From the NCBI GenBank assembly GCA_012862495.1, contig BLSG01000062.1, positions 7,875-41,435 of the forward strand: a stretch of DNA of 33,561 bases, written 5' to 3'. The DNA is from Thraustochytrium aureum (Eukaryota). Positions 1 through 31,421 of this stretch are shown here, piece after piece. Under the pieces are notes generated by a model. That model did no database searches, was not told the DNA's origin, and saw nothing but the letters and a program-made list of their open reading frames with translations. The position numbers and the translations under genes are program-made. Numbering within the stretch: position 1 is the first letter of the stretch; every line of letters starts with the position of its first letter.

Positions 1-38
1 GACAGTCACCAAGCACTGCCATCCATGTCACGACCTAC

Positions 39-596
39 AATAGCTCATTCAGCGTCGAGTTGATCTCGAGCGCATTGGCCAACGCGCCAGCCCCTGCATC
101 GCCGATGCCGTTGCCCCCAAGACTGTTGTTGTCGTCGTTGTTGTCGGTCGATGTTGGCGACAGTCGCACGAGTGGGTCAGCCACCGCCGAGAAACACAGC
201 GCGGTGCGGCCGCGCCACCAGCCCCTCAACAGCCACGAGCGCACTCGACAGCTACCAGCGCACTCGACAGCCACCAGCGCACTGCCATCCCTGCCACGAC
301 TTACATCAACGACTCAGCGTCGAGTTGGTCTCAGCGCCTTGGCCAGCGCGCCAGCCCCGTCAGCGCCGATGCTGTTGAGCCCAATACTGTCGTCGTCGTC
401 GTTTGATGACGGCGATGGTCGCGCGAGTTGGTCAGCCACCGCCGAGAAAAACAGCGCGACGCGGCCGCGCAAGCAGGCTCTGTCTTTTTGCATGCAGGCA
501 CGAGGCAGGCACGAGCGCACTCGACACACAGCCATAAACTCACTCGATCTCCGTCTCCCCGCGGCTCATCGCCTCCACTGCCCCCTCGGCGGCCAT
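39..596 (-). CDS. Second paralogous multi-exon LRR gene (5' part only; runs off the window start)
   Basis: Leader exon 544-596 (MAAEGAVEAMSRGETEI, donor GTGAGT) is homologous to exon 1 of the neighbouring gene. LRR exon 305-386 is only 82 nt and frameshifted. LRR exon 39-122 is an intact 84 nt (LGGNGIGDAGAGALANALEINSTLNEL). The same intron motifs are present. Confidence 0.8.
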
Positions 597-2091
597 CTCG
601 CCTGGGCCTTCAAATAGCTCGCACACACCTCCTGCGCAGGATCCGCGACCCTGGGCCTCGCCTGAAGCGCGCGCAACTCGTGCCTTGCCGGGTCCGCCTC
701 CCCTCGCCGCCCACGCACGCGACGCAGCGCCCTGTGCCGTGCCGCGCCTGCTCAGCCCCGTCAGCCAGCCTGTGCTCTGTCCGCGTTGCGTGACTGCTCT
801 GTTTTGTTGCGGGCCGCGCCGCCGTCGAAAGACCAAGGGTGGCGAGTGCCCGCGAAAGTGCGGTCGGCCGACACGGCCAGGGCCTGGTCGCTGGGCAGCG
901 CCTCCAGCTGCGGGCCCTGCCTGGTTCGCCCAACCAACCTGGACCCTTTTGAAGGTCGGGACTCGGGACCGACTTGTCCGCGCGGTGGTTTACGTCGCTC
1001 TCAGTCCTGTGCAGGCCGTACGCCCAGCGCTAGCTAGACAGGCAGGCACTCGCGAGCAGTCAGGTCAGGGCTATGGGTGCTCGGCCAAGTTTGTGGCGTA
1101 ATTCCCGCGGAAAGGGGATCACAGACGAGTGCGAACCGAAGAAAGCGCCGTAGGCCTTCCGGCGGCCCTGCGACGGCGACTCTGGGTACGTCAAGGACGC
1201 CGAGTGCAGCGTTTTTCACATGCATGGCCCAAAGGACTCGACAAATTTGGACGGCTCAGCCATGGCTCTTCTGCTGGCGGCGCGAGAGAAACGAAAGAGA
1301 CAATGAACTTGTCAGACGAAAAACCCAACAACACCTACAGACGGTGGTCGACAATGGGCACAACCGAGATCGAGACCGAGCCGCGCACAGAGCAGGACGA
1401 GGCCGGCCGGCCGCCGCGCCAATCAAAAGTCCAGGTACTCGGCGCTGATTTTCGGACTCGCAGTCGCCTGTCTCGTCATCTGGGTTTCTACAACACAAGC
1501 ATACGGGGGCAATGGCCCCTCGGCGGCGAGAGTGCCCCCAACCACGCCGGTGTCGTGCCCGAGAAGGCGCGCTGAAACCAGCAGATGGCGGCTAGACCGT
1601 CACTTTTCTTTATGCGTCGGACACCTGGGCCAGGTACAGAAAAGCGTAGGAACCTCCTTAGGCCGCCAGTGACGGGACATCACTGCGCGCGACGAAGGCC
1701 GCGTTCTCCATGTGGTTGGGTGTTGTTACTCTGCGCGCCCTCAAAAGAAAGGGAAAGAAACAGCGCTGCCAAACCTTTAAAGCTCAGGCAGCACCTACAA
1801 GGACGCCTTGCCACGCCCGGAGCGATGCTCAAACGTCTGGAACTCGCTCTGCGAGCAGGTCGAGGTCCCCGACGTCGCGCCACGGTCGTGCCTGTTATCG
1901 GCAGCCGCCGCCTCTGGTTCCGTGGTCTTCGAGGCGCACGACGACCTGCAGCGACTGCGGCATCGACCTCAAGAAGGAGGACCGTGCGGCCTGCAAGCGG
2001 AGGAGAGCGAGGCGAAGCGCCGCAGGGCCGAGGCTGTGTCTTTGGATTTCGAGCTGCTGCAAGAGCTAGTCGTCGCCTAACTTTCAGACCT

Positions 2092-5000
2092 TTACCATTG
2101 AATCTCAACGGTTCTGCCCAGGAACGCCTCAATCCGGGCGACTATCACTAACGGCAGTCCACTTCCCTGACCAAACATATGCATCGTACGTCGTCTCCTT
2201 TGAACCTGGGACGCCACCACCGCGGCCAGCTCGCCAGGCCCAGTATTGCCGATGTTGTTGTTCCGAAGACTGCCGTTGTTGTGCGCGATTGGTCAGCCAC
2301 CACCGAGAAATACAGAGCGCTGCGGCCAAGCAAACTGTTTGCGTACGCATGGCCCGAGCGCACTCGGCAGCCACGAGCGCACTGCCATCCCAGTCACAAC
2401 TTACTCCAGCGAAGTCAGCGTCAAGTTGGTCTCGAGCGCCTTGGCTAGCGCGCCGGCTCCGGTAGCGCCGATCCTATTCTTCTCCAGACTGTCGTTGTGG
2501 TTCGATGACGACAACAGTCGAGCTAGTTGGTCAGCCACCACGGAGAATCGCACAGTGGCGAAAGCTGGCTCTGCTGTTGTATGCACGCTGGCAGGCTCGA
2601 GCGCACGCGACAGCCACCAGCACACTGCCATCCCTGCCACGACTTACCCAAGCACGGCCAGCGTCGAGTTTATCTCGAGCGCCTTGGCCAGCGAGGCGCC
2701 TGCGAGATTGACCGGGTTGAGGTCGAGAGATCGACTGAAAAGAATTGCGGTAATCCGCTGCGAAAAAAAATTCATCCCGCCCACCACCCCAACGGTGGCA
2801 CCAGCCCCAGCATCGCCGATTTCGTTCTCTCCAAGACTGTCGTTGATGTCGTTCGATGATGACGATGCTCGCACCGCGAGTTGGTCAGCCGCCAGCGAGA
2901 ACACATGGTGGCGCAAGCAGGCTCTGTTTTAATGCACCGAGGCAACAGACAGGCACGAGCGCACTCAAGAGCCACCAGCGTACTGCCATTCCTGCCACGA
3001 CTTACCCGAGCGATGTCAGCGTCGAGTTGGCCTCGAGCGCCTTGGCCAAAGCGCCAGCCCCTGCATCGCCGATGCCGTTGCTCTGAAGACTGTTGTTGTT
3101 GTTGTTGTTGTGGTTCGATGGTGACGATGGTCGCGCGAGTAGGTCAGCCTCCACCGAGAAACACAGGGCGGTGCGCTGCGTGGGCGGGCCCTGTCTGTAC
3201 TTGCATACAGCCACAAGGCAGACAAGATCGCACTCGACATCGACTAGCGCCCTGCCACCCCTGCAACGACTTACTCCAGCTTAGCCAGCGTCGAGTTGGA
3301 CTCGAGCGCCTTGGCCAGCGCGCCAGCACCTGCAGCGTTGATGACATTCCAGCCAAGACTGTAATTGTTGTTGTCGTGTTCGATGATGACATGGTCGCGC
3401 GAGTCGGTCAGCCACCACCGAGAAAAACACAGCGCGTGTGGCCGCGCAAGCAGGCTCCGCAAGAATGCAAGGCAGGCACGAGCGCACTGAACTGCCATCT
3501 GCGCACAGCCATCCCTGCCACGCTTACAAGAGCTCCGTCAGCGTCGAGTTGGTCTCGAGTGCCTTGGCCAAAGCACCAGCCCCTCCAGCCCCAATGCAGC
3601 TCCAGGAAAGGCTGTTGTTGTCGTTGTGTTCGATGATGGCGTGGTCGCACCGCGAGTTGGTCAGCCGCCACCGAGAATCACATAGTGGCGCACGCAGGCT
3701 CTGTTTTATGCACGCAGGCAAGAGCGAAGCGCTCGCGCGCTCGACCGCCACCAGCGTGCTGCCATCCCTGCCACGACTCACTCCAGTGAAGCCAGCATCG
3801 AGTTGGTCTCGAGCGCCTTGGCTAGCGCGCCTGCGCCTGCATTGCTGATTCCGTTGCGGAAAATACTGTTAACGTTGTCGTTCGATGATGAAGATGGTCG
3901 CTCGAGTTAGTGCGGCCGCGCAAGCCGGCTCTGCCTCTGTGCATACAGGCACGAAGCAGGCACGTGCGCACTCGACTGCCAGCCACCCCTGCAACGACTT
4001 ACTCCAGCTTAGTCAGCGCCGAGTTGGTCTCGAGCGCCTTTGCCAGCGCGGCAGCCCCTGCAGCGCCGATGCTATTCCCCCGAAGACTATTATTGGTGTC
4101 GCTCGATGATGATGATGATGATGATGTTCGCACCGCGAGTTGGTCAGCCGCCACCGTGAACACATAGTGGCGCAAGCAGGCTCTGTCTGAACGCATGCAG
4201 GCACGAGCCAGGCACGAGCGCACTCGACAGCCACAAGCGCACTCGACAGCCACGAGCGCACTCGACAGCCACGAGCGCACTGCAATCCCTGCAACGACTT
4301 ACTTAAGCGAAGCCAGCGTCGAGTTGGTCTCGAGCGCCTTGGCCAGCGCGCCAGCCCCGTCAGCACCAAATATGTTCCTCCTAAGACTGTTGTTGATGAT
4401 GCCGTTCGATGATGACGATGGTCGCGCGAGTTGGTCAGCCAATACCGGAACAAAGAGAGCGGTGCGGTCGCGCAAGCAGGCTCTGTCTGAACGCATGCAA
4501 GCACGGTGCACGTACGAGCGCGCTCGACAGCCACCAGCGCACTGCCATCCCTGCCACGACTTACGAGAGCTCAGTCAGCGTTGAGTTGGTCTCGAGTGCC
4601 TTGGCCAAAGCGCCAGCTCCTGCAGCGTCGATCCTGTTGCCTTCAAGACTGGTTTTGTTGTCGTTCAATGATGACGATGGCCGCGCGAGGTGGTCAGCCA
4701 CTACCGAGAAATAAAGAGCGGTGCGGCCGCGCAAGTAGGCCCTGTCTGTGTGCATGAGGCACGAGCGCACTCGACACCCAGCAGCGCACTCGACATCCAC
4801 GAGCGCACTTCCATCCCTGCCACGACTTACTTCATACAGGTCAGCGTCGAGTTGGTCTCGAGCGCGTTGGCCAGCGCGCCAACCCCTGCATCACCGATGC
4901 CGTTACTCTCAAGACTGTTTTGTTTTGTTTTTTGGTTCTCGCGAGTTGGTCAGCCAGTCCCGCGCGAAACACAGAGCGGTGCGGCCGCGCAAGCAGGCTC

Positions 5001-5397
5001 TGTATATACGCGTGCAAGCACGATGCACGTTCGAGCGCACTCGACAGCAACCTGCGCACTGTCACCCCTGCAGCGACTTACTCCAGCAAAGTCAGCGTCG
5101 AGTTGGTTTCGAGCGCCTTGGCCAGCGTGCCAGCCCCTGCATCGCCGATATAGCTGTCCAGAAGACTGTCGTTGTTTTCGTCGTTCGATGAAGACGACGG
5201 TCGCGCGAGTTGGTCAGCCAGCACCGAGAAACAGAGAGCGGCCGCGCAAGCTGGCTCTGCATGTAGGCACGAGGCAGGCGNNNNNNNNNNNNNNNNNNNN
5301 CGAGCGCACTCGACAGCTAGCCATAAACTCACTCGATCGCCGTCTCCCCGCGCTCCGTCGCGGCCGCTGCCTCCTCGGCGTTTTCGCAGTAGACCAT
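2092..5397 (-). CDS. Multi-exon RNI/NLRC3-like LRR protein (~423 aa, 13 exons, one LRR per exon)
   Basis: Spliced by hand. Exon 1 is 5333-5397 (MVYCENAEEAAAATERGETAI, donor GTGAGT). 84-nt exons lie at 5082-5165, 4831-4914, 4565-4648, 4303-4386, 4003-4086, 3782-3865, 3528-3611, 3275-3358, 3006-3089 and 2405-2488. A 189-nt exon at 2648-2836 is 84 nt plus an in-frame 105-nt insert. The terminal exon 2092-2269 ends in TAA. All introns are GT(A/G)AG...YAG and phase 2, with no stop at any junction. Repeat consensus LxxNxIGxAGAGALAKALETNSTLxxL. A 20-N gap in intron 1 could hide further units. Confidence 0.9.
2693..2797. other. 105-bp in-frame insertion of unrelated sequence inside an LRR exon
   Basis: Interrupts GAGA|LAKALE and adds TVGVVGGMNFFSQRITAILFSRSLDLNPVNLAGAS. 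It contains an A8 run, and I see no similarity to the cassette. Confidence 0.85.
4213..4280. repeat. 19-bp intronic minisatellite (GAGCGCACTCGACAGCCAC), ~3.5 copies
   Basis: Direct tandem copies. The other LRR introns carry fewer, often degenerate, copies. Confidence 0.85.
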
Positions 5398-8315
5398 CTT
5401 GCCTGTCTGCCAGCCCGCCAATAGAGCTCGCAAAGCACCTGTAGAGCTCGCCTCAAGCGCGGGCCACTGGTGTCGCCCTTTGACGCCTCCCTTTGACGCC
5501 GCTGGCGCACGCTCGTACGGAGTACTCTGTGCCCGGTGCCGCGTCGGCCTTTGCTCGCTCCGCGGTAACCGTCACCTCCATCATGTGCCTTGCAAGAAAG
5601 CGGAGTTCGCTCCTACTCGAGCAACAGCGAGTGGCCGAATGCGGTCGTCCTTAGTTCCCTCTTGCAGCCGGCCCGCGGACGCTTGTCGGCTCGCTGCACT
5701 GGCAGAGCCAGTGCTCTTACCGTACAGGCTCTTGCTTGTCCGAGTTGGACACGGCGCTGCGATCGGTGAGGATCGCGAGGTTGGACGAGGAAAAACCAAC
5801 CTCGTGTCGAGCAAGCCCTCTTGGCATCTTGACGAGGGCCGTCGCGAAGCACACGTACTCTAGCTAGTACTACTTTAGAAAGTTTAGATTGATAGAGCAC
5901 TTCGAAGGCACGCTGTGGCAAGCGATGTCTGCCTACCGCGCTCCCTCCCGATCGAGTTGTCGAAGAGGACGACCATTTCAAGCCGATGCGCCGGGGGCGA
6001 TGCGCGTGCGTGAGGTTACCTACGCACGAGACGCAGATGGAGGTTTCCGCTGAGATCGGCTTTGTTGCCCAGCTGAAGTGTCTGTGATGCGCCGCGGTGC
6101 TCAAGATCGATGGGCTCAAGAGGGACGGCGGCGGCTCGGCGAACGACGTATACGACTTCGCCTCCCGACAGGCGCACGACCACACGGCTCTGTTCAGGAG
6201 CGACGACTGTTTCGGAGAAGATAGCGGGTGCGATACGAGCGCACGTTATCTCAGTGTTACTGGAAGCGGGCCAGTGCGACAAGGAAAGGCGCAAACACAT
6301 CTCGGTGGCACGCCAGCGATACATCAAGTATAAGTTACAATGCTAGAGCGGCCTCGACCTTGATCGGCTTGAGCTACGGTCTGTGTCGATCCACAACGGC
6401 CTGTTTACAACAGGTGGGCAGACGGCGTCATGGTCCGCTGCGACGACTCGAGCAAGTGCACGCCGAAGGGAGCTGCAGCGCCGCCGAGAGGAGAGAGCGA
6501 CAAAATACTGCAGTGTGCTCGAGTGCGCGTTTCATGCCGGATGGTGCAAAAATTAAAGGCCCCTTCTTCTTCAACTCCCTTCGTCCCTTGGTTGTCTCGC
6601 TGTTCCCCCGGCTCGCGCCCTCGCTCCAACCCGACATGGAGCTCACCGTCACCAGGTTCTGGGTCGCAGGACGTCAAGGAGCGCGCCGCAGGTATGACCA
6701 GGCGTCCAAAAGATCCTCTCTGAGCTCCAACTCGATCCTCGACGACGACGCGATCCGCAGGTCGAGCCCAATGGCGCCAGCCGCGTTGCCCTCCAGCGGG
6801 CCCAACGCGGAGCGAATCTATGCCCAAGGAGGGCTCGAGGGCAACAGGAATCACTCGAGCACCTCAAAACTCCTCAACCTGAACCAGGCACAGCGGCGAG
6901 GCGGCGACTCGTCGCTCAAGGAGTCCGCTGCGCCGCCGTCGCCTCCCCGGCTCTCGAGCCCCGCCGGCACGGCGAGCAGGACATTCTGGCAATCGAGCGC
7001 ACCACACTTGCCGCCGTTGTTCGGCACACCCAGCGACAAAGCCAGCGAAGCAGCAGGCTGGCAGACGGTCTTCAAGTTGTCTTTCCAGCAACGAACGAAA
7101 GACTGGCTGCCCACAGCGATCACCGAACATCGACTTGTCGCATCGTCAAGATCTGCGCAGACTTGTTTGTCCAGCAGCGAATGGAGATGTTCGCTGGGCT
7201 TGGTCGGGACTTGGGCTTGCTGTGCGGTCCTGCTGGAAAGGCTCCAGCCTGAGGCTGGCTGGCTGGCTGGCCCGCCTCGAGCTCCTCAGGCTCCCACGTA
7301 AAATGCTCGGCCTACGGGCGCGGAGGAGTCCAAAGGGGTCATGGGGATGCAAGCAGCGGCGAAGGCCTCCTTGCTCCCTCCTCGTCCCGCCCGCGCGCCA
7401 GGAACATTGTTCTGGTCTCGCCTGTTCGTTGTCGCCGGGCTGACGAAATGGATGGAACTACCTGCAACAGCATGGGCCTGCTGCAGCCGCGGCCGGCTCG
7501 CGCGCGCGTGGTGATGGAGAAACGAGTTGCGCCGTGTAAGTGGAGAGCGCGACAATNNNNNNNNNNNNNNNNNNNNNNNNNNNNNNNNNNNNNNNNNNNN
7601 NNNNNNNNNNNNNNNNNNNNNNNNNNNNNNNNNNNNNNNNNNNNNNNNNNNNNNNNNNNNNNNNNNNNNNNNNNNNNNNNNNNNNNNNNNNNNNNNNNNN
7701 NNNNNNNNNNNNNNNNNNNNNNNNNNNNNNNNNNNNNNNNNNNNNNNNNNNNNNNNNNNNNNNNNNNNNNNNNNNNNNNNNNNNNNNNNNAAGGAGGAGC
7801 GCAGCCCATCTCATGAAGGCTCTCTCTCTCTCTCCTTCGGCGCAGGAGCCGCGGCAGCGCTTGCCGTGTGGCTCCGCGGCGCGGGCGACGCGAGGTGACG
7901 ATCGTCCCGCTAACGAACACCGTGCTGCCACGGCGGGCCGCAGGGGGCCAAGACGTGGCGAGCTGAGCTGAGCGGGCGTTGAGCGTCCGTTTCTTTTTCC
8001 CGCGTGCATTTTGGTTGAGTAGAGAAGTATACGCCGCCATGGATCAGTGACCACCAATGTGTCCAGGATGGATCTCCCTTGAGAGATGGCACTTTCGCCC
8101 TTGCTCGGTGCCGCGGCTTTCTGTGAGTTTACAACCAATAAACACACAATCCGAAGGCTGCCCTCCGGCGTCTCGGCCTTCCGCCACCTTTCGGCACCGT
8201 AGCACGAGCTGCGTCGAGTCGAGCGCGACTGCGACCGCTTGGCAGACCCGGAACGACCAAGACATCGAACAGCACCTACAAAACAAGTAATTGATCGCAA
8301 CCAGCATCAGTCGAG

Positions 8316-10152
8316 ATGGACCGCGCGAGCACCGCGTTCAAGCTCGCCGTGTGCGCAGCCGCCGCGCATTACAGCAGGGCCGCCACAACGACGGTAGACA
8401 AGGTGGCCGGCGCGCGAGCAACCCAGGAGATGATGCTTTGCGGCGCCAGCGGAGCCTCCACAGCTGCTGCGTTCCAGCCGAGGTGCGCCACGACCTCGCA
8501 GACGTTTGGCACGATCGAGTGGGAGGCGTGCTGCGCGTTCGAGGAGAGCCCGCTCCAGTCCGGCCTGTGCCGCGGCTTTGAGACCTCGGGTATGTACTGC
8601 GACCCCAGCTTCGAGGACTGCAATGACGTGCTCAGCGAGAAGGACACGATGACGCTCAACCTACAGTTCAACACCCTGCCTGAAGACCAGAGCTGCTGCA
8701 AGACCTGCGTGTGCTACGGGGACCCCGAGTGCGTCTCGTTCAACAACGTGGAGGATCTGTGGATCCCCTGCGACGCGCGCAAAGAGGGCGACTGCCGTAT
8801 GTTTAAGGACATTTGCGAAAACCTGACCGACCCGAATGGCAACGAGTGCCAATGGAACTCGAAAAGCGATAACAGCCGAGGCTACAACATCGGCATGAAC
8901 GGTAGCCCTTGCACCCCCGTCATGGACGCAGACAACGAGATCAGCATGAACATGTTTACGTCCGGCAACAAGGAATTCAAGCTCGACCTGATCCTCGGCG
9001 AGCGCGGCGTCATCATGGAGACGCGCTTCACGATTCGCGGCGAGACCTTCAACCTCAACGCGCAGACCTGCTTTGACCAAAGTGGCACCGACGCCTGGTC
9101 GACGTCTGAGGCCGTCCCCGACAGCTGGCACGTCGTCCGCGCGGACGGGGAGGAGGTTCTCTGGGAGATCTTTGACGCGCAGACGCACATTGCCGCCACG
9201 CTCCTGTGCGTTCGCGCTGTCAGCGGAGGGACTGCGGGCCTTCCGCGAATCAACGTCCAGGCTCTTTCTGCACAGCCCTCTGTCGCTGACGCGAGCAGCG
9301 GGTTCTGCTCGAGCGACCAGATTAGAGACAAAGTCGGCGACTACGACGCGAGCAACAAGCTTCACTTTGACTGCGTGCAGAGCGAGGCCAGCCCGCTCCA
9401 GGCCTGCAAGCACCTCGTCAGCATGGGGCTCGTCGACAACCAGCTCCCCGAGTGCGCGACCCAGTTCTGCGCCAAGGGCAACGTGGACACGGCGAGCTGC
9501 ATCAGGAGCCTCGGCAACGGCAACAACAACAACCGCTGGGCGAGCTGGTTTTGCGAGGCTGTCAAGAACAACGGCTTGATTACCAACACGCGCACTTGCG
9601 AGCGCGAGGTCCGCGCTCAGGGGTGGCCCTGGGCGGTCGAGACGTATGGCACTGGCCTGCGTGACGTCCTCTCCGCGAGCGGGTGCGGCTCCAGCCTCGA
9701 CGAGTACGACGTTGCCGAACAAGCAGGACTGCGATGACGGCATCAGCGTGGAGGTCCAGAACACGGATGGAAGTTGGGAGGCCGTCTTGTTCATCCCCAT
9801 CAACCACCCGCTCTGCGACAACAAGCTCACGGTCAACGCCAAGCAGTACCCGGCGCTATTTACACACCCGATCCGAGTGCGCCAGTGCGATGTGCGATCG
9901 GACGCCAAGTGCGACGCCGTGGGCACCTGCAGCAGCACCGTGGGCGCCTCGTTTTCCGTCACCTACGCAAGCTCGAGCCAAACACTGAACGACCTTCTCG
10001 AGTCTGGCGTCCTCCGCTGCGTGCCGCACCCAGAGACCGGCTCGACCACCTATTGCCTCCCTGGGGCCAGCGACTCGAGCGAGATCCCGGAGCTCTGCCC
10101 GTGCCCTCCGCAGGACGAGCGCCGCCAGCTCGAGCGGTCGCTTCGGACGTAG
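8316..10152 (+). CDS. Cysteine-rich, probably secreted protein with a VWD-like motif; one frameshift near 9715
   Basis: ORF 8316-9737 continues in the +1 frame (KQDCDDGISVEVQ...) to 10152. Ala-rich N-terminus, many Cys, and CVCYGDPECVSFN resembling the C-x-x-x-GDPH-x-x-TFD start of von Willebrand D domains. Confidence 0.7.
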
Positions 10153-12993: not shown

Positions 12994-15270
12994 CTACTTG
13001 TCAGCCGACGCCGACTCGTCTTCGTCCGCTACGCTGATGCCCAGTGAGGCAGCGAGGGACTGGCGCAAGTTTGCCGAGCGACCAAACGACATTTCAGCGC
13101 GGCGCAGGTCCGCCTCGTCGATGTTGAGGTCCTCGTTCGTGTAGCAACAGATGGCGTCCATGAGCTCTGCGAAGAGGACCGTTTTCTTGAACCGCTCAAA
13201 GTTGTCCCGCTTCATGAGGTTAAACGTCTCCATGTGGCACTGGTCGAAACACGTTGGCGACTCCTCGCCATCCAGCACGGCCTGCGACATGTTGGCAGAC
13301 ACGTTGATCGGCGTCTTCGAGTTGGGCCCGATGAATCGGCTCACTATTGAACGGTACGATTCCTGCCCCAGGCGAAAGTTGTTCACAGCCTCCCAAAAGT
13401 CCAGGTGCTCCACAGTAAACTCGTTCTCCAGATGCTGCCTGAACAGCTCGCGGCCGAGCGTGTGCTTGAGAACGTGCTTGAGCATGATCTCCTTCTCCCC
13501 GAGCACACGCATCTCAAACTCCGCAAGCAGCTCTGCAGAACCCTTGAAAAAGGTGTCAAACGCCTCCTTGGTCACCGCCAAAAGTACGACATCAGAGTGA
13601 GCCGCCACGGTGGCGAGGTGCGGACGCCCCGTGATCATCGAGATTTCTCCAAAGTATGCCCCTTGCGCAAGCCGCACTATGGCCTTGCCGTTCTTGATCA
13701 CGTTGACCAAGCCACCAATCACAATGTAAAACGTCTCGCACCACCCGCCCTCCTCCATGAGAACCGTGCCGGCGCCGTGCTGCTGCAGCTCGCAAAGGTT
13801 GGCGAGCTCCAGAAGCTTGTCCTTGGCGATTCCCGCGAAGAACGGGAGGCGAAAGGCGTAGAGCTTGCGGACCATGCGCTGGCGGGCCTCGAAATCGATG
13901 CTCTCTTGCACGGCAGGACTGAGCTTGAGAAAGTTTGCGAATTCGCTGCCCTTCATCTTGGCCAGCAGACATCGTTCGGTGGCGGTGACCGTGGCCGTCC
14001 GCGGCATGTTGACCATCATGCCCATTTCGCCAAAGTAGGAACCGTCTTCTATGGTGGCCAGATTGAGCATGTTGACGCTTTCGTTGACGAGGCTACTGCT
14101 TTTGCGAAGGAGGCGCATGCTCGGCTGCGGCCGCAGCACGGGTACATCGCGCTGCTTTTTCAGCATCGCATAGTCCCCTCCGACAATCAGCGAGCGCTTC
14201 GGCTCGTCCGCTGTGCGCTTCGCTTGACTGTTTGGCAAATCGTTCACCCCATCCGCTGCTTCGGCTTCTTCGCCTGAGCTGCCACTCTCGCCCTTGGCGC
14301 CCGCATCCACGTCTTTGGGTGCCGTGTTTGCAGCTTGGTCTGACTCGCTGTCGCCAGCCTCACTCGACTCACGCTCGCCTTCGNNNNNNNNNNNNNNNNN
14401 NNNNNNNNNNNNNNNNNNNNNNNNNNNNNNNNNNNNNNNNNNNNNNNNNNNNNNNNNNNNNNNNNNNNNNNNNNNNNNNNNNNNNNNNNNNNTGCGCGTC
14501 ACGGAGCGGGTCGCGGCGTGCGTTGCTTGTTTGTCCGGCGAGATTCGCGCTGTTACGTCGAGCTTGCCGCTGAGAACCAGGTAGAACGAGTCGTCCAATG
14601 CGCCCTCTTGCAGCACCACAGAGCCCGCTTCGTGTGTCTCGTACGTGAAAAGCTCCGCGAGCGAGCTCAGGCGCTGCTTGTCAAGGTTGCCGAGAAACGG
14701 GATCGGTTTCAGCATTTGCTTGATGTCGGTGTTCAGGACGCGCTGGATGGCGCTCGCGTCCTTTGCATTTTTCTCCAGGTACTTGCGCTTGCCATTGTCA
14801 TCGAGCTTGAGGATGATCGTGTCTCGCAGCGCGCGCACCGTCGTAAAGTCGAACGCGTTCACCACCTTTTGCGCGCTGCCCGCCACCCGTGGCTTTTTCA
14901 AAAACTGGCTCCCGCCAGTGCTCGTCGCCAGCTCGCGCCCAGCGCGCGTGAAAAAGTCGCCCGTCTTCTTCACAGCCAGCAGCTCGCTGACGTGACCATT
15001 CGGGTTTGTCTTGCTCTTGCCCGCTACCGACGCGGAGCTCTTGCGCGCAGACTGGCCGCGGGGGACCAGCGTGGACAGCGCGAGTTCGCCGTCGACGACA
15101 ACAACAAACGCGGCGGCCTGCAGAAAGTCCCCATCGCGGATGTGCTCGAGCTTGAAATACCCGGCCAGCTCCCTCAGCGCATTCTCGTCCTCCATGCTCG
15201 TAAAGAACGGCGTGCCTTTGAGCAGCCTCACCTTCTCCTCCAACTGCGACTTACTCGCACCGCCGCCCAT
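12994..15270 (-). CDS. Cyclic-nucleotide-binding domain + C-terminal RGS domain protein, putatively N-myristoylated
   Basis: MGGGASK N-terminus. cNMP motifs GSYFGEMGMMVNMPRTATVTA and GAYFGEISMITGRPHLATVAA, plus a degenerate N-terminal one. RGS motifs GRELFRQHLENEFTVEHLDFWEAV, FIGPNSKTPINV and MKRDNFERF. Contains an N gap. Confidence 0.88.
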   Translation of the reverse strand: MGGGASKSQLEEKVRLLKGTPFFTSMEDENALRELAGYFKLEHIRDGDFLQAAAFVVVVDGELALSTLVPRGQSARKSSASVAGKSKTNPNGHVSELLAVKKTGDFFTRAGRELATSTGGSQFLKKPRVAGSAQKVVNAFDFTTVRALRDTIILKLDDNGKRKYLEKNAKDASAIQRVLNTDIKQMLKPIPFLGNLDKQRLSSLAELFTYETHEAGSVVLQEGALDDSFYLVLSGKLDVTARISPDKQATHAATRSVTRXXXXXXXXXXXXXXXXXXXXXXXXXXXXXXXXXXXXXEGERESSEAGDSESDQAANTAPKDVDAGAKGESGSSGEEAEAADGVNDLPNSQAKRTADEPKRSLIVGGDYAMLKKQRDVPVLRPQPSMRLLRKSSSLVNESVNMLNLATIEDGSYFGEMGMMVNMPRTATVTATERCLLAKMKGSEFANFLKLSPAVQESIDFEARQRMVRKLYAFRLPFFAGIAKDKLLELANLCELQQHGAGTVLMEEGGWCETFYIVIGGLVNVIKNGKAIVRLAQGAYFGEISMITGRPHLATVAAHSDVVLLAVTKEAFDTFFKGSAELLAEFEMRVLGEKEIMLKHVLKHTLGRELFRQHLENEFTVEHLDFWEAVNNFRLGQESYRSIVSRFIGPNSKTPINVSANMSQAVLDGEESPTCFDQCHMETFNLMKRDNFERFKKTVLFAELMDAICCYTNEDLNIDEADLRRAEMSFGRSANLRQSLAASLGISVADEDESASADK

Positions 15271-19142: not shown

Positions 19143-20082
19143 CCTCGCGCCCCGCGCGCACCAACCCTTGCGCAGTGCCAACCTNNNNNNNNNNNNNNNN
19201 NNNNNNNNNNNNNNNNNNNNNNNNNNNNNNNNNNNNNNNNNNNNNNNNNNNNNNNNNNNNNNNNNNNNNNNNNNNNNNNNNNNNNNNNNNNNNNNNNNNN
19301 NNNNNNNNNNCGAGCTTGCGCGCCACGAAGGCCACGCCCAGAGCCGCACAGGGCTGACGAGCAGCCTGGCCGTCGAAGCAGCGCCCGAGCGCTGGGAAGC
19401 GCGTCTCCGCTCGGCTGCTTCGGGCTCTGCCGCGCCGTTCACCACCGCCTTCGCGCACGACATGTTGCACGACAGCAAATCCGGCCGACTCGTCGAAACG
19501 CGCGCGCACCACGCACCACCGATCAACGCATGCTTCGTGGCGGGGCCAACAGCAACTCGACTTCGCTCAGCGCGTGGCCGGACTGTCGCGGACGTCTCGT
19601 GTGAACACCGCAGGGATGTCTGTCATCCGCCAGGGTTGCGCGTCAGTTATCTGGGCAAGGGCCTTTGCGGAGTAGATTTGGTTCGCATGTGGCTTCGGGG
19701 CCTCGTCAGGCTGGCAGGCGTACTCTCCAGCGAGCCGCCTCCGTGGCGTCCTTGATGGTGAAGCCTAAGCTCGGCAGGTTTTGGCAGCACCGTTTCGCTC
19801 ACCTTTTCGAGGTCGCGCCTCGCGTCTCTTGCGGCGCAGCGTTGCAGAGTACTCACTCAAAAACCACCCAACCACCCGAACCACATCGAGCACTTCAACG
19901 GATCTCTCTCGCGGGTCCGCGCGACGACATCGGTTCACAGGGTCGCGGCGCTGGCGGCACAGTGCCAGATCGTGCGCGACGAAAAAGGTCATTTGGCAGG
20001 GCTAATTCGTGATTTGTGCTGCCCAAATTGGACGCAAGCCGGTGGCGCGGTTGGTGCTGCAGCGCGAGAAAGGTTGGGGACG

Positions 20083-29133: not shown

Positions 29134-31421
29134 ATGGGCAACTCGGATAGCAGGGCAGTGTTTCGCGGGCTCGTGCAAGCGCTGCTGGAGGATGATATTG
29201 CGCCGGAGAGCCCGCTGTGGGAAAAGTTCTGGGACCTCCCCAAATGCGCGGATGACGTCTTTGAGCTGATCCAGCCAGGCGACGTCCGCATGCTGCTGAG
29301 GGAAAACCCCGCCAAGCTGCAGACGCTGCTGCTCAAAGCAGCTCGCAAGATGGAGGGGCCTCTAGTGGCCTCCGGGCCGCTGGACGCGGCGACGGCTCTC
29401 CACGCGCTAAACGCAGTGCGCGTCCTGACGCGGGTCCTCCCGTTTGTCCTCGAGCGGCAGGACGAGGCCTTTGTCGACGCGATGCTGTGGGACCCCGCTA
29501 GCTTTGACGGGACGAGCTCTGTGGCCGAGACGCTGATTTGGCGCCTCGGCCGCCTGCTCTTCTTGCCCGGGTTTACGCTCTCCCCGCGCGTGGCGCGCCC
29601 AGCTCCCCGCGAAGCCGGCCAATCGGGGCGCAAAGTCATGCGGCCCATGTCGACGAGCGGCATGACCGAGGATAACGACACTGACACAGGCGAAAGGGAG
29701 GACGGCGAGGGCGAGGGCGAAGATTCGAACGAGGAGGCCGCCTCGCAGCTCGTACTGAACACCGCCATTCTGTGGAGCGAAGGTGTGGGCACCGCGTCAG
29801 CGACGGCCAAGCCAATCGTCGACGACTCGCTCAACATGACCCGCTACGAGCTGCTCAAGTTGCTGCTGGTCTTCCAGTCGGGCGTGCTCTACTCTGCGCC
29901 GAGCGGCTGCAAGCCGGAGACCAACCGGTGGATCGCAGCGATCTCGCTGCACGAGCTAGAAACGGGCGGGATTTGCTTTGGGCGCGAGCTGTTCTTCTCC
30001 CTGCTCAACCAGGTGTGCCGGTACGACCCCGTGGGCTGGGGCGTTCCCTTTGCGAGTGCGATCCGCTCCGGCAAGTCGGACGACCTTTTCACGGACGCGT
30101 GCCTGCAAAACCTGCTGGTCCTGCTTGAGGTGAACTCTTGGTCAAACGTGTTCCGGCGCCTTCTGAGCGACATCCAGGCTCCCGAGGAGCTTGAGCTGCT
30201 GTACTCGAGCATCGCTCGGCTGCTGCGAAACGTCCCCGAGGCCACGAACGCGCTTCTGCCGGGCTCGACCAAGCCCGTGGAGTGCTACCAAGAGCTGCTT
30301 GTCCTGTTTTGGAAGCTTCTGGACAGCAACAAGGCCTTCATGCGTACGCCCTCCAGAGCTGCGACATCCAGTTCGTCGTGGCGCCGGTCTGCTTCTTCAT
30401 GTGGAATGGGCGCAAGGACCCGGCCAAGGTTGGCTTGCTGCACATGTGCACGTTCGTCCTCTTGCTGCTGAGCGGGGAGCGCAACTTTGGCGTCAACCTG
30501 AACGACGCGTTCGACCTGGGTCGGCTGGCCCTCAACGGGGCGCCAAAGGTGTCGCAAGGCAACCTTGCGGACGTCCTGGTCGTCGTGTTCCACAAGCTCA
30601 TCGTGGACGGGACAAAGCGGCTCTCGACGCTCTACAACTGCTTTCTGACAGTGCTCAGCAACATATCGCCGTACATCAAGGGGTTTAGCCAGGCCTCCAG
30701 TATGCGGCTCTTGCAGCTGTTCGAGCACTTTTCAGGGAGGCGCTTCCTGCTGGGCGGCGAGAACAACCACCAGTACATCACGTTCCTGCTCGACGTTTTC
30801 AACAACGTGATTCAGTACCAGTACGAGGGCAACGCGCAGCTTGTCTACGCGTTGTGCCTCAAGCAAGAAACGCTGCGGCGCTTGGCCACCCTTGAGCTGG
30901 TGCAGGAGGCCGGGGGCGCCACGCCGCGCGAGGGGCGCCCTGGCTCTGCGCAGCGCAAGAACGGCACAGCGACGGAATACAGCGACCCTGGGGAGCCAAT
31001 CAACGGCCCTGCAGAGGGCACCGCTTTGCAACTGCAGCAAGCGGCTCGGCAGCAGCAGGCCCTGCACGGCGCATTCGTGCCGACACAGGACTGGTTCTCG
31101 TCGTGGAAGAGCAAGCTGCCCCTCTCCGCGCTGCTGCGCATGCTCGACATTCTCGTGCCCAAGGTGGAGGCGATGTGCCGGCGTGAAGACGGGACGACGC
31201 CGAGGGATGGCGAGATCTTGCACTTTTTGCGCAACTCGACGATGGTAGGGCTCCTGCCCGTCCCGCACCCGATCGTGATTCGCCGGTACCAGCCGAATCA
31301 GTACACCACCTTGTGGTTCACCACGTACACCTGGAGCGTGATCTACCTCCGAAACCAGGACAAGCCTCTGTGGGACGGAAAGCTTATCCGCCTCTTCACG
31401 ATCAACTTGGTGAGCAAGTAG
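29134..31421 (+). CDS. HID1: HID1 (dymeclin/HID1 family) Golgi protein; frameshift ~30342
   Basis: MGNSDSRAVFR myristoylation-type start, ALNAVRVLTRVLPF, YDPVGWGVP, GLLHMCTFVLLLLSGERNFGVNLN, NNVIQYQYEGNAQLVY and VGLLPVPHPIVIRRYQPN...IRLF. Confidence 0.92.

Follow-up and report, generated by a model that had tools for sequence, protein, structure and literature searches.

The stretch of DNA analysed here (the window, 33,561 nucleotides; its host, a marine protist, clusters with the thraustochytrid Hondaea) carries two tandem genes, A and B, which probably belong to a spliced, multi-copy labyrinthulomycete family encoding proteins made of leucine-rich repeats (LRRs) only. In this favoured explanation, a cassette of one exon plus one intron has been duplicated and unequally recombined, and the products are intracellular binders whose concave face varies against proteins of viruses or parasites. 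Intracellular binding is likely for these LRR proteins, and virus or parasite proteins are the most likely targets driving the variation of the concave face.

Gene A runs on the minus strand from 5397 to 2092, has 11 internal LRR exons between exon 1 and the last exon, and encodes a spliced product of 423 amino acids. Gene B, its tandem paralogue on the same strand, is truncated: it starts at an ATG at 596 and runs off the window. The contigs named below come from sequencing runs X1–X5. The features are as follows:

5398–5562, minus strand: gene A 5′ leader and promoter-side DNA, homologous to the gene B counterpart
5333–5397, minus strand: gene A exon 1 (coding part), 65 nt, ATG at 5397, acidic N-terminal cap, phase-2 donor
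5281–5300, no strand: assembly gap of 20 N within gene A intron 1
5082–5165, minus strand: gene A LRR exon 2, 84 nt; an X4 contig is identical over 5090–5165
4831–4914, minus strand: gene A LRR exon 3, 84 nt
4565–4648, minus strand: gene A LRR exon 4, 84 nt
4303–4386, minus strand: gene A LRR exon 5, 84 nt; joint 4303/4086
4003–4086, minus strand: gene A LRR exon 6, 84 nt; joint 4303/4086
3782–3865, minus strand: gene A LRR exon 7, 84 nt
3528–3611, minus strand: gene A LRR exon 8, 84 nt
3275–3358, minus strand: gene A LRR exon 9, 84 nt
3006–3089, minus strand: gene A LRR exon 10, 84 nt; Pfam LRR_6 at E 0.0016, under the curated cut-off
2648–2836, minus strand: gene A LRR exon 11, 189 nt: an 84-nt LRR exon extended by 105 nt, inserted in frame at about 2693–2797
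2405–2488, minus strand: gene A LRR exon 12, 84 nt; one X3 contig bridges both sides
2092–2269, minus strand: gene A last exon, with the final LRR strand, a long capping helix, a basic patch, a short amphipathic C-terminal helix and the stop
544–596, minus strand: gene B exon 1 (coding part), a homologue of gene A exon 1, phase-2 donor
305–386, minus strand: gene B LRR exon 2, 82 nt, broken by two 1-nt deletions and a stop
39–122, minus strand: gene B LRR exon 3, 84 nt; an X3 contig is identical over 39–104
123–5332, minus strand: fourteen phase-2 introns, twelve of them in gene A and two in gene B, 135–216 nt, mutually homologous

The initial annotation had described 13 internal LRR exons across the two genes, all of phase 2-2 and nominally 84 nt long; the phase holds throughout (14 of 14 introns), as does the one-repeat length in 11 of the 13 exons, the exceptions being the 189-nt exon of gene A, whose 105-nt insert is also present in an X1 DNA contig covering 2621–2942 (1 difference), and the broken 82-nt exon of gene B. 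All 14 introns have GT[AG]AG donors, [CT]AG acceptors and a CT[AG]AC branch motif 22–56 nt upstream of the AG, and their 3′ ends are rich in A and C, not T. Their mutual homology, claimed at the outset, is borne out by pairwise identities of 64–85% among the 13 gap-free introns (78 pairs); some also contain copies of a 19-nt minisatellite. As to the other genes of the window, which had been credited with at most one intron each, a spot check agrees, to the extent that it covers long unbroken open reading frames (ORFs) and HID1, collinear with its homologues except for one frameshift. Since these neighbours have few introns and the array apparently arose by a single intron gain followed by amplification, its layout is not a by-product of intron richness. 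The gain would have placed one phase-2 intron within the codons for the β-strand of a 28-residue repeat; amplification of the intron-bearing unit would have followed.

At the 5′ side, RNA-like contigs span 5333–5500 and end at the exon 1 donor of gene A. Aligned over 259 columns, exon 1 included, the leaders of the two genes share 68% identity, and the alignment gaps break the reading frame. The flanks of the 20-N gap match adjacent bases in gene B intron 1. Upstream of the gene A ATG, a stop follows at 57 codons with no ATG between, and the cap before the first repeat has 21 residues only. Exon 2 of gene B is either a dead cassette or an assembly error, and gene B may be a pseudogene. Its exon 3 is spliced to a further LRR exon outside the window: at one end, the X3 contig at this place has 30 unaligned letters, which can be read as the following LRR exon.

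Spliced transcripts, proposed initially as a check on the gene model, are present, with junctions at predicted GT-AG ends for 4 of the 12 gene A introns in RNA-like contigs (5333/5165 and 4303/4086 in X4, 2648/2488 in X3 and X4, and 2405/2269). Runs X2–X4 are not on record as RNA and were taken as cDNA on the grounds that introns are skipped at exact GT-AG ends; unlike in these runs, no bridged introns occur in the DNA runs. The RNA-like contigs leave the 105-nt insert and several exons of gene A uncovered, holes which carry no evidential weight, and one X4 contig stops at 2693, the border of the insert.

Recombination and alternative splicing had been offered jointly as sources of a repertoire; the former gains from the mosaic cassettes described below, while splicing does not, with no exact exon skip among 7 joint rows in RNA-like contigs, which lose rare forms. 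That alternative splicing is the main source, many isoforms arising by skipping from a few long arrays, is unlikely in our view. A single exon phase and the lack of any junction stop among 144 donor–acceptor combinations in gene A would permit it, the broken exon of gene B must be skipped if the exon downstream of it is to be translated, and the available parts of two papers provide precedents in NLRP3 (PMC6642158) and brown algal ROCO genes (PMC11378527). However, all four exact-boundary joints connect adjacent exons, one X3 contig holds three exons in order, and the exon end and last exon of a short X4 transcript (see below) are not producible by skipping within gene A. Under the favoured explanation of a recombining family, the variation would lie in the genome and be inherited, and splicing would proceed plainly exon after exon.

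The gene A protein consists solely of RI/NLRC3-type 28-residue LRRs (LxxLxLxxNx(I/L) plus helix) and short caps, so that the description of an LRR-only system lacking GTPase and NB-ARC domains stands for the 423-residue frame. The term “receptor” does not: no signal peptide was found in gene A, nor any membrane helix or signalling domain, its N-terminus is acidic, and 19-residue hydropathy, read without a dedicated predictor, peaks at 1.33. Neither is there a NACHT or NB-ARC domain before the LRRs, as in NLRs (an exon upstream of 5500 being possible), nor a ROC GTPase plus COR after them, as in ROCO proteins, the short last exon being spliced on in RNA-like contigs. Pfam returned no family in the last exon or in the ORF at 1585–2151, and Rfam no RNA family within 1–6000. 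The 28-residue repeat class is common, because 6,836 representatives score at E up to 0.001 with the exon profile. The matches include coral NLRC3-like, Mortierellaceae and unnamed LRR proteins, LRR_6 proteins and RI-like PDB chains, among them the NOD2-length chains 5irm/5irl, which we take to be NOD2; no labyrinthulomycete-named protein is among the 104 matches listed.

The last exon reaches its stop 58 codons past its start, and a low-confidence structure model places helices at its residues 11–27 and 40–49. The second of these bears the motif LPxxIVxxIxxFL, which resembles the F-box helix 1 consensus, and several short LRR-only matches finish, by eye, in similar LP-led helices. From this likeness, the predicted helix and the similar ends follows the proposal that the proteins are substrate subunits of cullin ubiquitin ligases, the LRRs picking the target and a truncated, F-box-like motif docking Skp1 or Elongin C. 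We consider it quite unlikely, as the tail matched no Pfam family at E values of up to 10, had no homologue in a set of 65 candidates, gave no significant phmmer match in 243 LRR proteins (lowest E 0.13) and, with a model of pTM 0.30, no fold match; a literature search likewise gave no useful precedent for C-terminal F-box or LRR-only proteins. For the binders favoured here, the effect may be direct blocking of the target or hand-over via the short C-terminal helix. Ribonuclease inhibitor is an LRR protein that blocks its target directly.

The variation of the cassettes is sharply confined. The exposed strand (18 nt, six binding-face positions) is 45% identical between exons, against 84% for the remaining 66 exon nt and 75% over 175 columns for the introns (exposed strand versus introns, p 1.6e-7). 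Likewise, dN is 1.1–1.5 at exposed-strand positions versus 0.09–0.12 in framework and helix. If the variable codons are given a free substitution rate, omega drops to 1.5–1.6, and omega = 1 with a 3.4–4.2-fold rate fits equally well (log-likelihood difference 0.3–0.5); positive selection at the strand positions is thus unproven. Selection and a locally raised substitution rate fit this divergence alike and could not be told apart by such omega tests, which recombination biases. Variation at the strand positions involves all four bases, and adenine-only mutation of the DGR type was rejected by eye.

A neutral or housekeeping expansion, in which slippage and gene conversion multiplied the exon-intron unit of a scaffold LRR protein whose exposed residues are unconstrained, would accord with omega = 1 not being rejected under a free rate, with one broken and one insert-bearing exon among the 13, and with the mostly purifying selection on Tetrahymena genes described in the available part of PMC6564038. 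Relaxed constraint alone, however, predicts intron-like speed and not faster change, against the 45% and 75% identities seen, and a model with one omega throughout, in which only the rate differs, has a poorer fit (twice the log-likelihood difference, 6.8–9.0). Such an expansion therefore seems to us an improbable account.

Several observations point to exchange among cassettes. A PHI-type test on 10 cassettes gave p 0.001–0.006 (0.0008–0.02 with variable sites removed), and the 5′ and 3′ halves of the introns are uncorrelated (Mantel r -0.11, p 0.71). On the other side, the window cassettes are only 64–85% identical, so that most duplications are old. Introns also become less alike the further apart they lie in the array (rho -0.37, p 0.005), as local tandem duplication would have it, and the X1 and X5 DNA pieces described below hold to the exon order of the window. 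In X2–X4, five spliced strand patches (translated by hand) and two last exons are missing from the window, and window and contigs together hold three or more kinds of last exon. The suggestion of more than the two window loci is supported by these extra spliced paralogues, and that of a different exon order by one X4 transcript: a contig of 299 nt, whose table entries sum to its length, matches exon 2 without a difference (76 of 76 nt) and then continues into a different exon end and a different last exon. This transcript (one contig, one run) may represent an old paralogue rather than a recent exchange. Taken together, the mosaic cassettes, the additional spliced paralogues and the joining of exon 2 to another last exon make it likely that exon cassettes are reshuffled by DNA recombination.

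The window could itself mislead, the long array of gene A being in part an assembly chimera of shorter paralogues. The assembly does contain N gaps and frameshift errors, and X4 contigs finish exon 2-like and exon 6-like cassettes differently, leading into other last exons. Yet the window exon order is kept in the listed X1 DNA pieces, which track it over 2425–2942, 3052–4011 (overlapping pieces) and 4632–5103 with 0–4 differences each, and in one piece of X5, a separate study, which matches 3850–4016 with 2 differences; a chimera is therefore very unlikely, with the X1 contigs assembled independently, even if X1 is possibly the source of the window. Summed X1 contig depth reaches 783 on cassettes versus about 3–12 on unique stretches, which is not a copy number. 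Scans with exact DNA patterns turned up no stretch in either metagenome or viral contigs.

The family would thus have been built through repeated duplication and unequal recombination of an exon-plus-intron cassette. Each strand is split by an intron, with three exposed residues in the upstream exon and three in the downstream one; exchange within an intron would therefore join half-strands in new pairs. A crossover in the conserved helix segment of the exon would instead shift entire strands and alter the repeat number. A more far-reaching version, an actively diversifying defence repertoire in an intron-poor stramenopile—cassettes moving between genes so rapidly that strains, or even cells of one clone, differ, the strand patch around each intron mutating or being patch-converted several times faster than the remainder of the cassette, and a C-terminal helix handing captured proteins of viruses or parasites to a ubiquitin ligase—is speculative, and we would not expect it to be correct in full.

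Related thraustochytrids are hosts of large DNA viruses, according to the available part of a preprint (bioRxiv 10.1101/2023.06.15.545109), and thraustochytrid relatives are culturable. With small LRR-only proteins and a variation sharply limited to the predicted binding face, this makes for a compact test system for defence repertoires, one which could separate selection, conversion and local hypermutation as sources of variation.

In our literature search, from which subscription journals mostly fell outside, no labyrinthulomycete report of one-repeat-per-exon LRR arrays was found; the layout as such is already known from ciliates, brown algae and animals, and the comparisons below draw on the available parts of the papers cited. 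As an exon-shuffling LRR array—a layout, not a clade—gene A combines equal exons of a single phase with alike, recombining units.

The LRR domains of animal NOD/NLRC proteins (Hoss et al. 2019, PMC6642158) share the RI-type repeats and an exon border at a fixed spot inside the β-sheet. Coral NLRC3-like proteins are the best protein matches of the gene A repeats, with 50–57% identity over 350–400 residues to the five best-scoring NLRC3-like LRR regions. Unlike the animal genes, gene A has no NACHT or effector domain, its introns are mutually homologous and its repeats are far more uniform; the coral identity may therefore reflect a shared consensus, not descent.

Brown algal ROCO-LRR and NB-ARC-TPR genes (Zambounis et al. 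2012, PMC3341825; Teng et al. 2024, PMC11378527) have in common with the present genes one-repeat exons, shuffling, variable concave-face residues, inactivated exons, a stramenopile host and a proposed immune role. The ROCO genes differ in their 72-nt plant-type LRR exons, ROC-COR GTPase, intron-rich genome and reported alternative splicing, compared with RI-type repeats, no GTPase, intron-poor surroundings and no skipping found in contigs here. A closer parallel than the Ectocarpus ROCO genes cited in the initial annotation exists in a ciliate.

The group III LRR genes of Tetrahymena (Xiong et al. 2019, PMC6564038) are arrays of 90-bp exons, compared with 84 nt or 28 residues in this stramenopile, and share with gene A one-repeat exons, phase-2 introns and mostly no membrane domain. 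In both, exon-plus-intron units are alike at the DNA level (about 347 bp in Tetrahymena, about 255 here), and the variable exon number of the ciliate genes was ascribed to unequal crossing over; this precedent lowers the novelty of the gene A layout. Tetrahymena has about 50,000 such exons and an associated LINE-like element; no non-LTR or LINE-like retrotransposon was seen among the ORFs or repeats of the window, which contains N gaps, by self-comparison and ORF reading. Finally, the ciliate genes are mostly under purifying selection, whereas variation in the present array is focused on the strand positions.

Region 1-5397 of the minus strand holds two LRR genes in tandem, gene A and gene B, whose main features are the following:

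5397, minus strand: start ATG of gene A; first exon of 65 nt, followed by 11 internal LRR exons
2836-2648, minus strand: LRR exon 11 of gene A, 189 nt (84 nt plus an in-frame insert of 105 nt)
2269-2092, minus strand: last exon of gene A, coding for 58 residues
596, minus strand: start ATG of gene B; first exon of 53 nt, followed by two LRR exons up to the window end
386-305, minus strand: LRR exon of gene B, 82 nt, containing a stop

After splicing, gene A codes for 423 residues in a frame that is open throughout. The initial annotation had described 13 internal phase-2 exons of nominally 84 nt; the phase stands for all 14 introns of both genes, while the length is exactly 84 nt in 11 of the 13 exons, the exceptions being those of 189 and 82 nt. 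The insert of exon 11 (2693-2797), which is also present in a DNA sequencing run that may be the window's own source (X1), has no likeness to the rest of the window and may be a newly gained intron; read by eye, a GT at 2801 together with a CAG that ends at 2700 would permit removal of 102 nt, leaving an in-frame exon of 87 nt.

All 14 introns start with GT[AG]AG, end with [CT]AG, and carry a CT[AG]AC motif, which lies 22-56 nt upstream of the AG. Their proposed mutual homology is evident from the 13 N-free introns, with a pairwise identity of 64-85% (mean 74%; 78 pairs, ungapped columns). A polypyrimidine tract is absent (introns within 123-5332; T fraction 0-0.24 in the final 25 nt), and the stretch from the branch motif to the AG is rich in CAT/CAA/GAC.

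The repeats of both genes are RI/NLRC3-type LRRs of 28 residues each. With E no higher than 0.001, the exon profile retrieved 6,836 representatives; searches with it also matched coral NLRC3-like proteins, Mortierellaceae proteins and, among solved structures, RI-like chains. The first repeat of gene A is preceded by just 21 residues, and no NACHT, NB-ARC, ROC or kinase parts were found in this gene; its make-up of cap, repeats and 58-residue last exon agrees with the LRR-only architecture initially described, free of GTPase and NB-ARC domains. The leaders of the two genes are homologous, with alignment gaps that break the frame. Since the gene A protein has no signal-like N-terminus and a top 19-residue hydropathy of 1.33, it is likely cytosolic. 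Its tail ends in a predicted helix with the pattern LPxxIVxxIxxFL, which resembles F-box helix 1 and would suit a ubiquitin-ligase adaptor; Pfam, homologue, LRR-protein and fold searches gave no support to this likeness, and such a role of gene A-type proteins is quite unlikely.

Splicing was assessed in five of nine sequencing runs, none of the nine recorded as RNA, of which X2-X4 were taken as RNA by guess. The five were compared in the form of contigs, at 90% likeness for X1-X4 and at 97% for X1, X3, X4 and X5 (a DNA run of another study). Four of the seven joint rows at 97% are exact removals of predicted gene A introns (5333/5165, 4303/4086, 2648/2488 and 2405/2269), all in X3 or X4; joint 5333/5165 crosses an N gap and has a short side of 30 letters. 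The remaining rows are one X3 paralogue patch and two X1 DNA mosaics. A single 268-nt X3 contig joins exons 11, 12 and 13 in order, and another X3 contig matches the gene B exon 122-39 over 66 nt with 0 differences before entering a further LRR exon; thus, transcription takes place from gene B or from a paralogue identical to it. The exon-skipping isoforms anticipated initially did not appear, exact skips numbering 0 of 7 joint rows in a table that is weak for rare isoforms because contigs omit rare forms; alternative splicing is unlikely to be the main source of variety.

The HID1 protein of a neighbouring gene has its top matches at 52-53% identity, Hondaea fermentalgiana among them. A 29-row tree, made from the window and 28 hand-chosen of 119 matches, places it on a long branch in a six-row group with Hondaea (support 100/97); on this placement, the window DNA is labyrinthulomycete, of a lineage that is likely not close to Hondaea. 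In line with the intron-poor surroundings noted initially, the rest of the window's genes are long ORFs without breaks, HID1 being collinear with its homologues save for one frameshift (30342-30345, tblastn). A second frameshift is likely at the GMC oxidoreductase end (about 12607, alternative frame). Both point to assembly indel errors, which is relevant to the broken exon of gene B, and the whole fits an intron-poor genome in an assembly with some such errors. Between genes A and B, 1113-1268 is matched by diverged contigs of DNA and RNA-like runs and is, by these matches, an element repeated elsewhere in the genome. Upstream of gene A, 5559-5592 has a short match to another transcript in X2 and to X1 DNA, with long loose ends, possibly the remnant of another gene. 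An inverted match (75 nt, 74% identity) links 1733-1807 with 19745-19818. Judged by eye, the protein at 12994-15270 (minus strand) presumably combines cyclic-nucleotide-binding regions with an RGS-like domain at its C-terminus. A cysteine-rich protein of 473 aa is encoded at 8316-9737 (plus strand); its N-terminus is signal-like, and it matched no Pfam family up to E 0.1.

The intron interrupts the LxxLxLxxNxI strand: the upstream exon supplies x2, x3 and most of x5, the downstream one x7, x8 and x10. Among the 11 intact 84-nt exons, x7/x8/x10 show 7/6/7 distinct residues, and 8 of 27 positions are invariant. Exon-to-exon identity is 45% at the six exposed positions forming the strand patch (18 nucleotides), against 75% in introns (175 columns; p 1.6e-7); the other 66 exon nucleotides are 84% identical. 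When both classes of a two-class codon model shared one synonymous rate, omega was 3.7-4.6 for the exposed class of five codons and 0.24-0.29 for all others (p < 1e-6 versus omega = 1). Given a rate of their own, the exposed codons reach omega 1.5-1.6, a fit equalled by omega = 1 at a 3.4-4.2-fold rate; neutral expansion of a scaffold protein may be considered here, if as an improbable account. The patch thus changes at three to four times the pace of the remaining cassette (one LRR exon plus one intron), owing to what may be selection, patch-sparing conversion or local hypermutation.

Across 10 intron-plus-exon cassettes, near sites are more compatible than far ones in a PHI-type test (p 0.001-0.006; 0.0008-0.02 minus variable sites), and the distance patterns of the 5' and 3' intron halves are unrelated (Mantel r -0.11, p 0.71). 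Introns of gene B match those of gene A at 73% identity, about the same as the 75% within gene A. The farther apart two introns lie in the array, the lower their identity (rho -0.37, p 0.005); hence, local duplication also contributed. RNA-like contigs carry spliced strand patches foreign to the window (e.g., SLDLCGNS, SLLLGRNT, SLNIAWNG, ELILEWNKI and WLNLSRNDIR, translated by hand from contig tables), as well as last exons of two additional kinds. One 299-nt contig of X4, whose structure was deduced from four alignment pieces summing to its length, equals the first LRR exon of gene A over 76/76 nt, including the variable x7-x10 patch, and continues with another exon end and then directly a different last exon. 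This single contig of one run may represent an allele or a paralogue; in either case, one cassette occurs in two exon orders. Of the recombination and/or alternative splicing put forward in the initial annotation, mosaic cassettes and the reordered contig favour the former; the joint rows, from contigs that omit rare forms, contain no exact skip that would show the latter. The X1 pieces listed differ from the window by 0-4 positions each across the array, and X5 shares the exon 6-exon 7 link; this agreement, X1 possibly being the window's source, counts against fast change, and an assembly chimera is a very unlikely origin of the gene A array.

Most likely, a single phase-2 intron would have been gained within one repeat, after which unequal recombination, both inside genes and from one gene to another, would have multiplied and exchanged the exon-plus-intron unit (~255 nt). 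Crossovers inside the intron would create new half-strand pairings, and those in the conserved helix part of the exon would alter repeat number and order. Where visible, transcripts are spliced exon after exon. The encoded proteins are probably binders that act inside the cell and vary on their concave face; conflict with viruses or parasites would be the likeliest driver, by analogy and from the divergence pattern.

No report of such arrays in labyrinthulomycetes was found in the literature searched, a collection with few subscription papers. Tetrahymena group III LRR genes follow the same logic, having 90-bp exons of one repeat each, phase-2 introns, exon-plus-intron units alike at the DNA level, variable exon numbers, and proteins mostly without a membrane domain (PMC6564038). 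Their layout is that of genes A and B, as is that of brown algal ROCO genes, in which 72-nt LRR exons are shuffled and the concave face carries the selected sites (PMC3341825, PMC11378527). Animal NLRs likewise have an exon border fixed within the beta-sheet (PMC6642158), but genes A and B themselves are neither NLRs nor ROCOs. They are real, spliced and diversifying genes of an already known layout, with a precedent in Tetrahymena (PMC6564038); beyond a static one-repeat-per-exon gene, they offer a sharp variable patch, mosaic cassettes and a reordered transcript.
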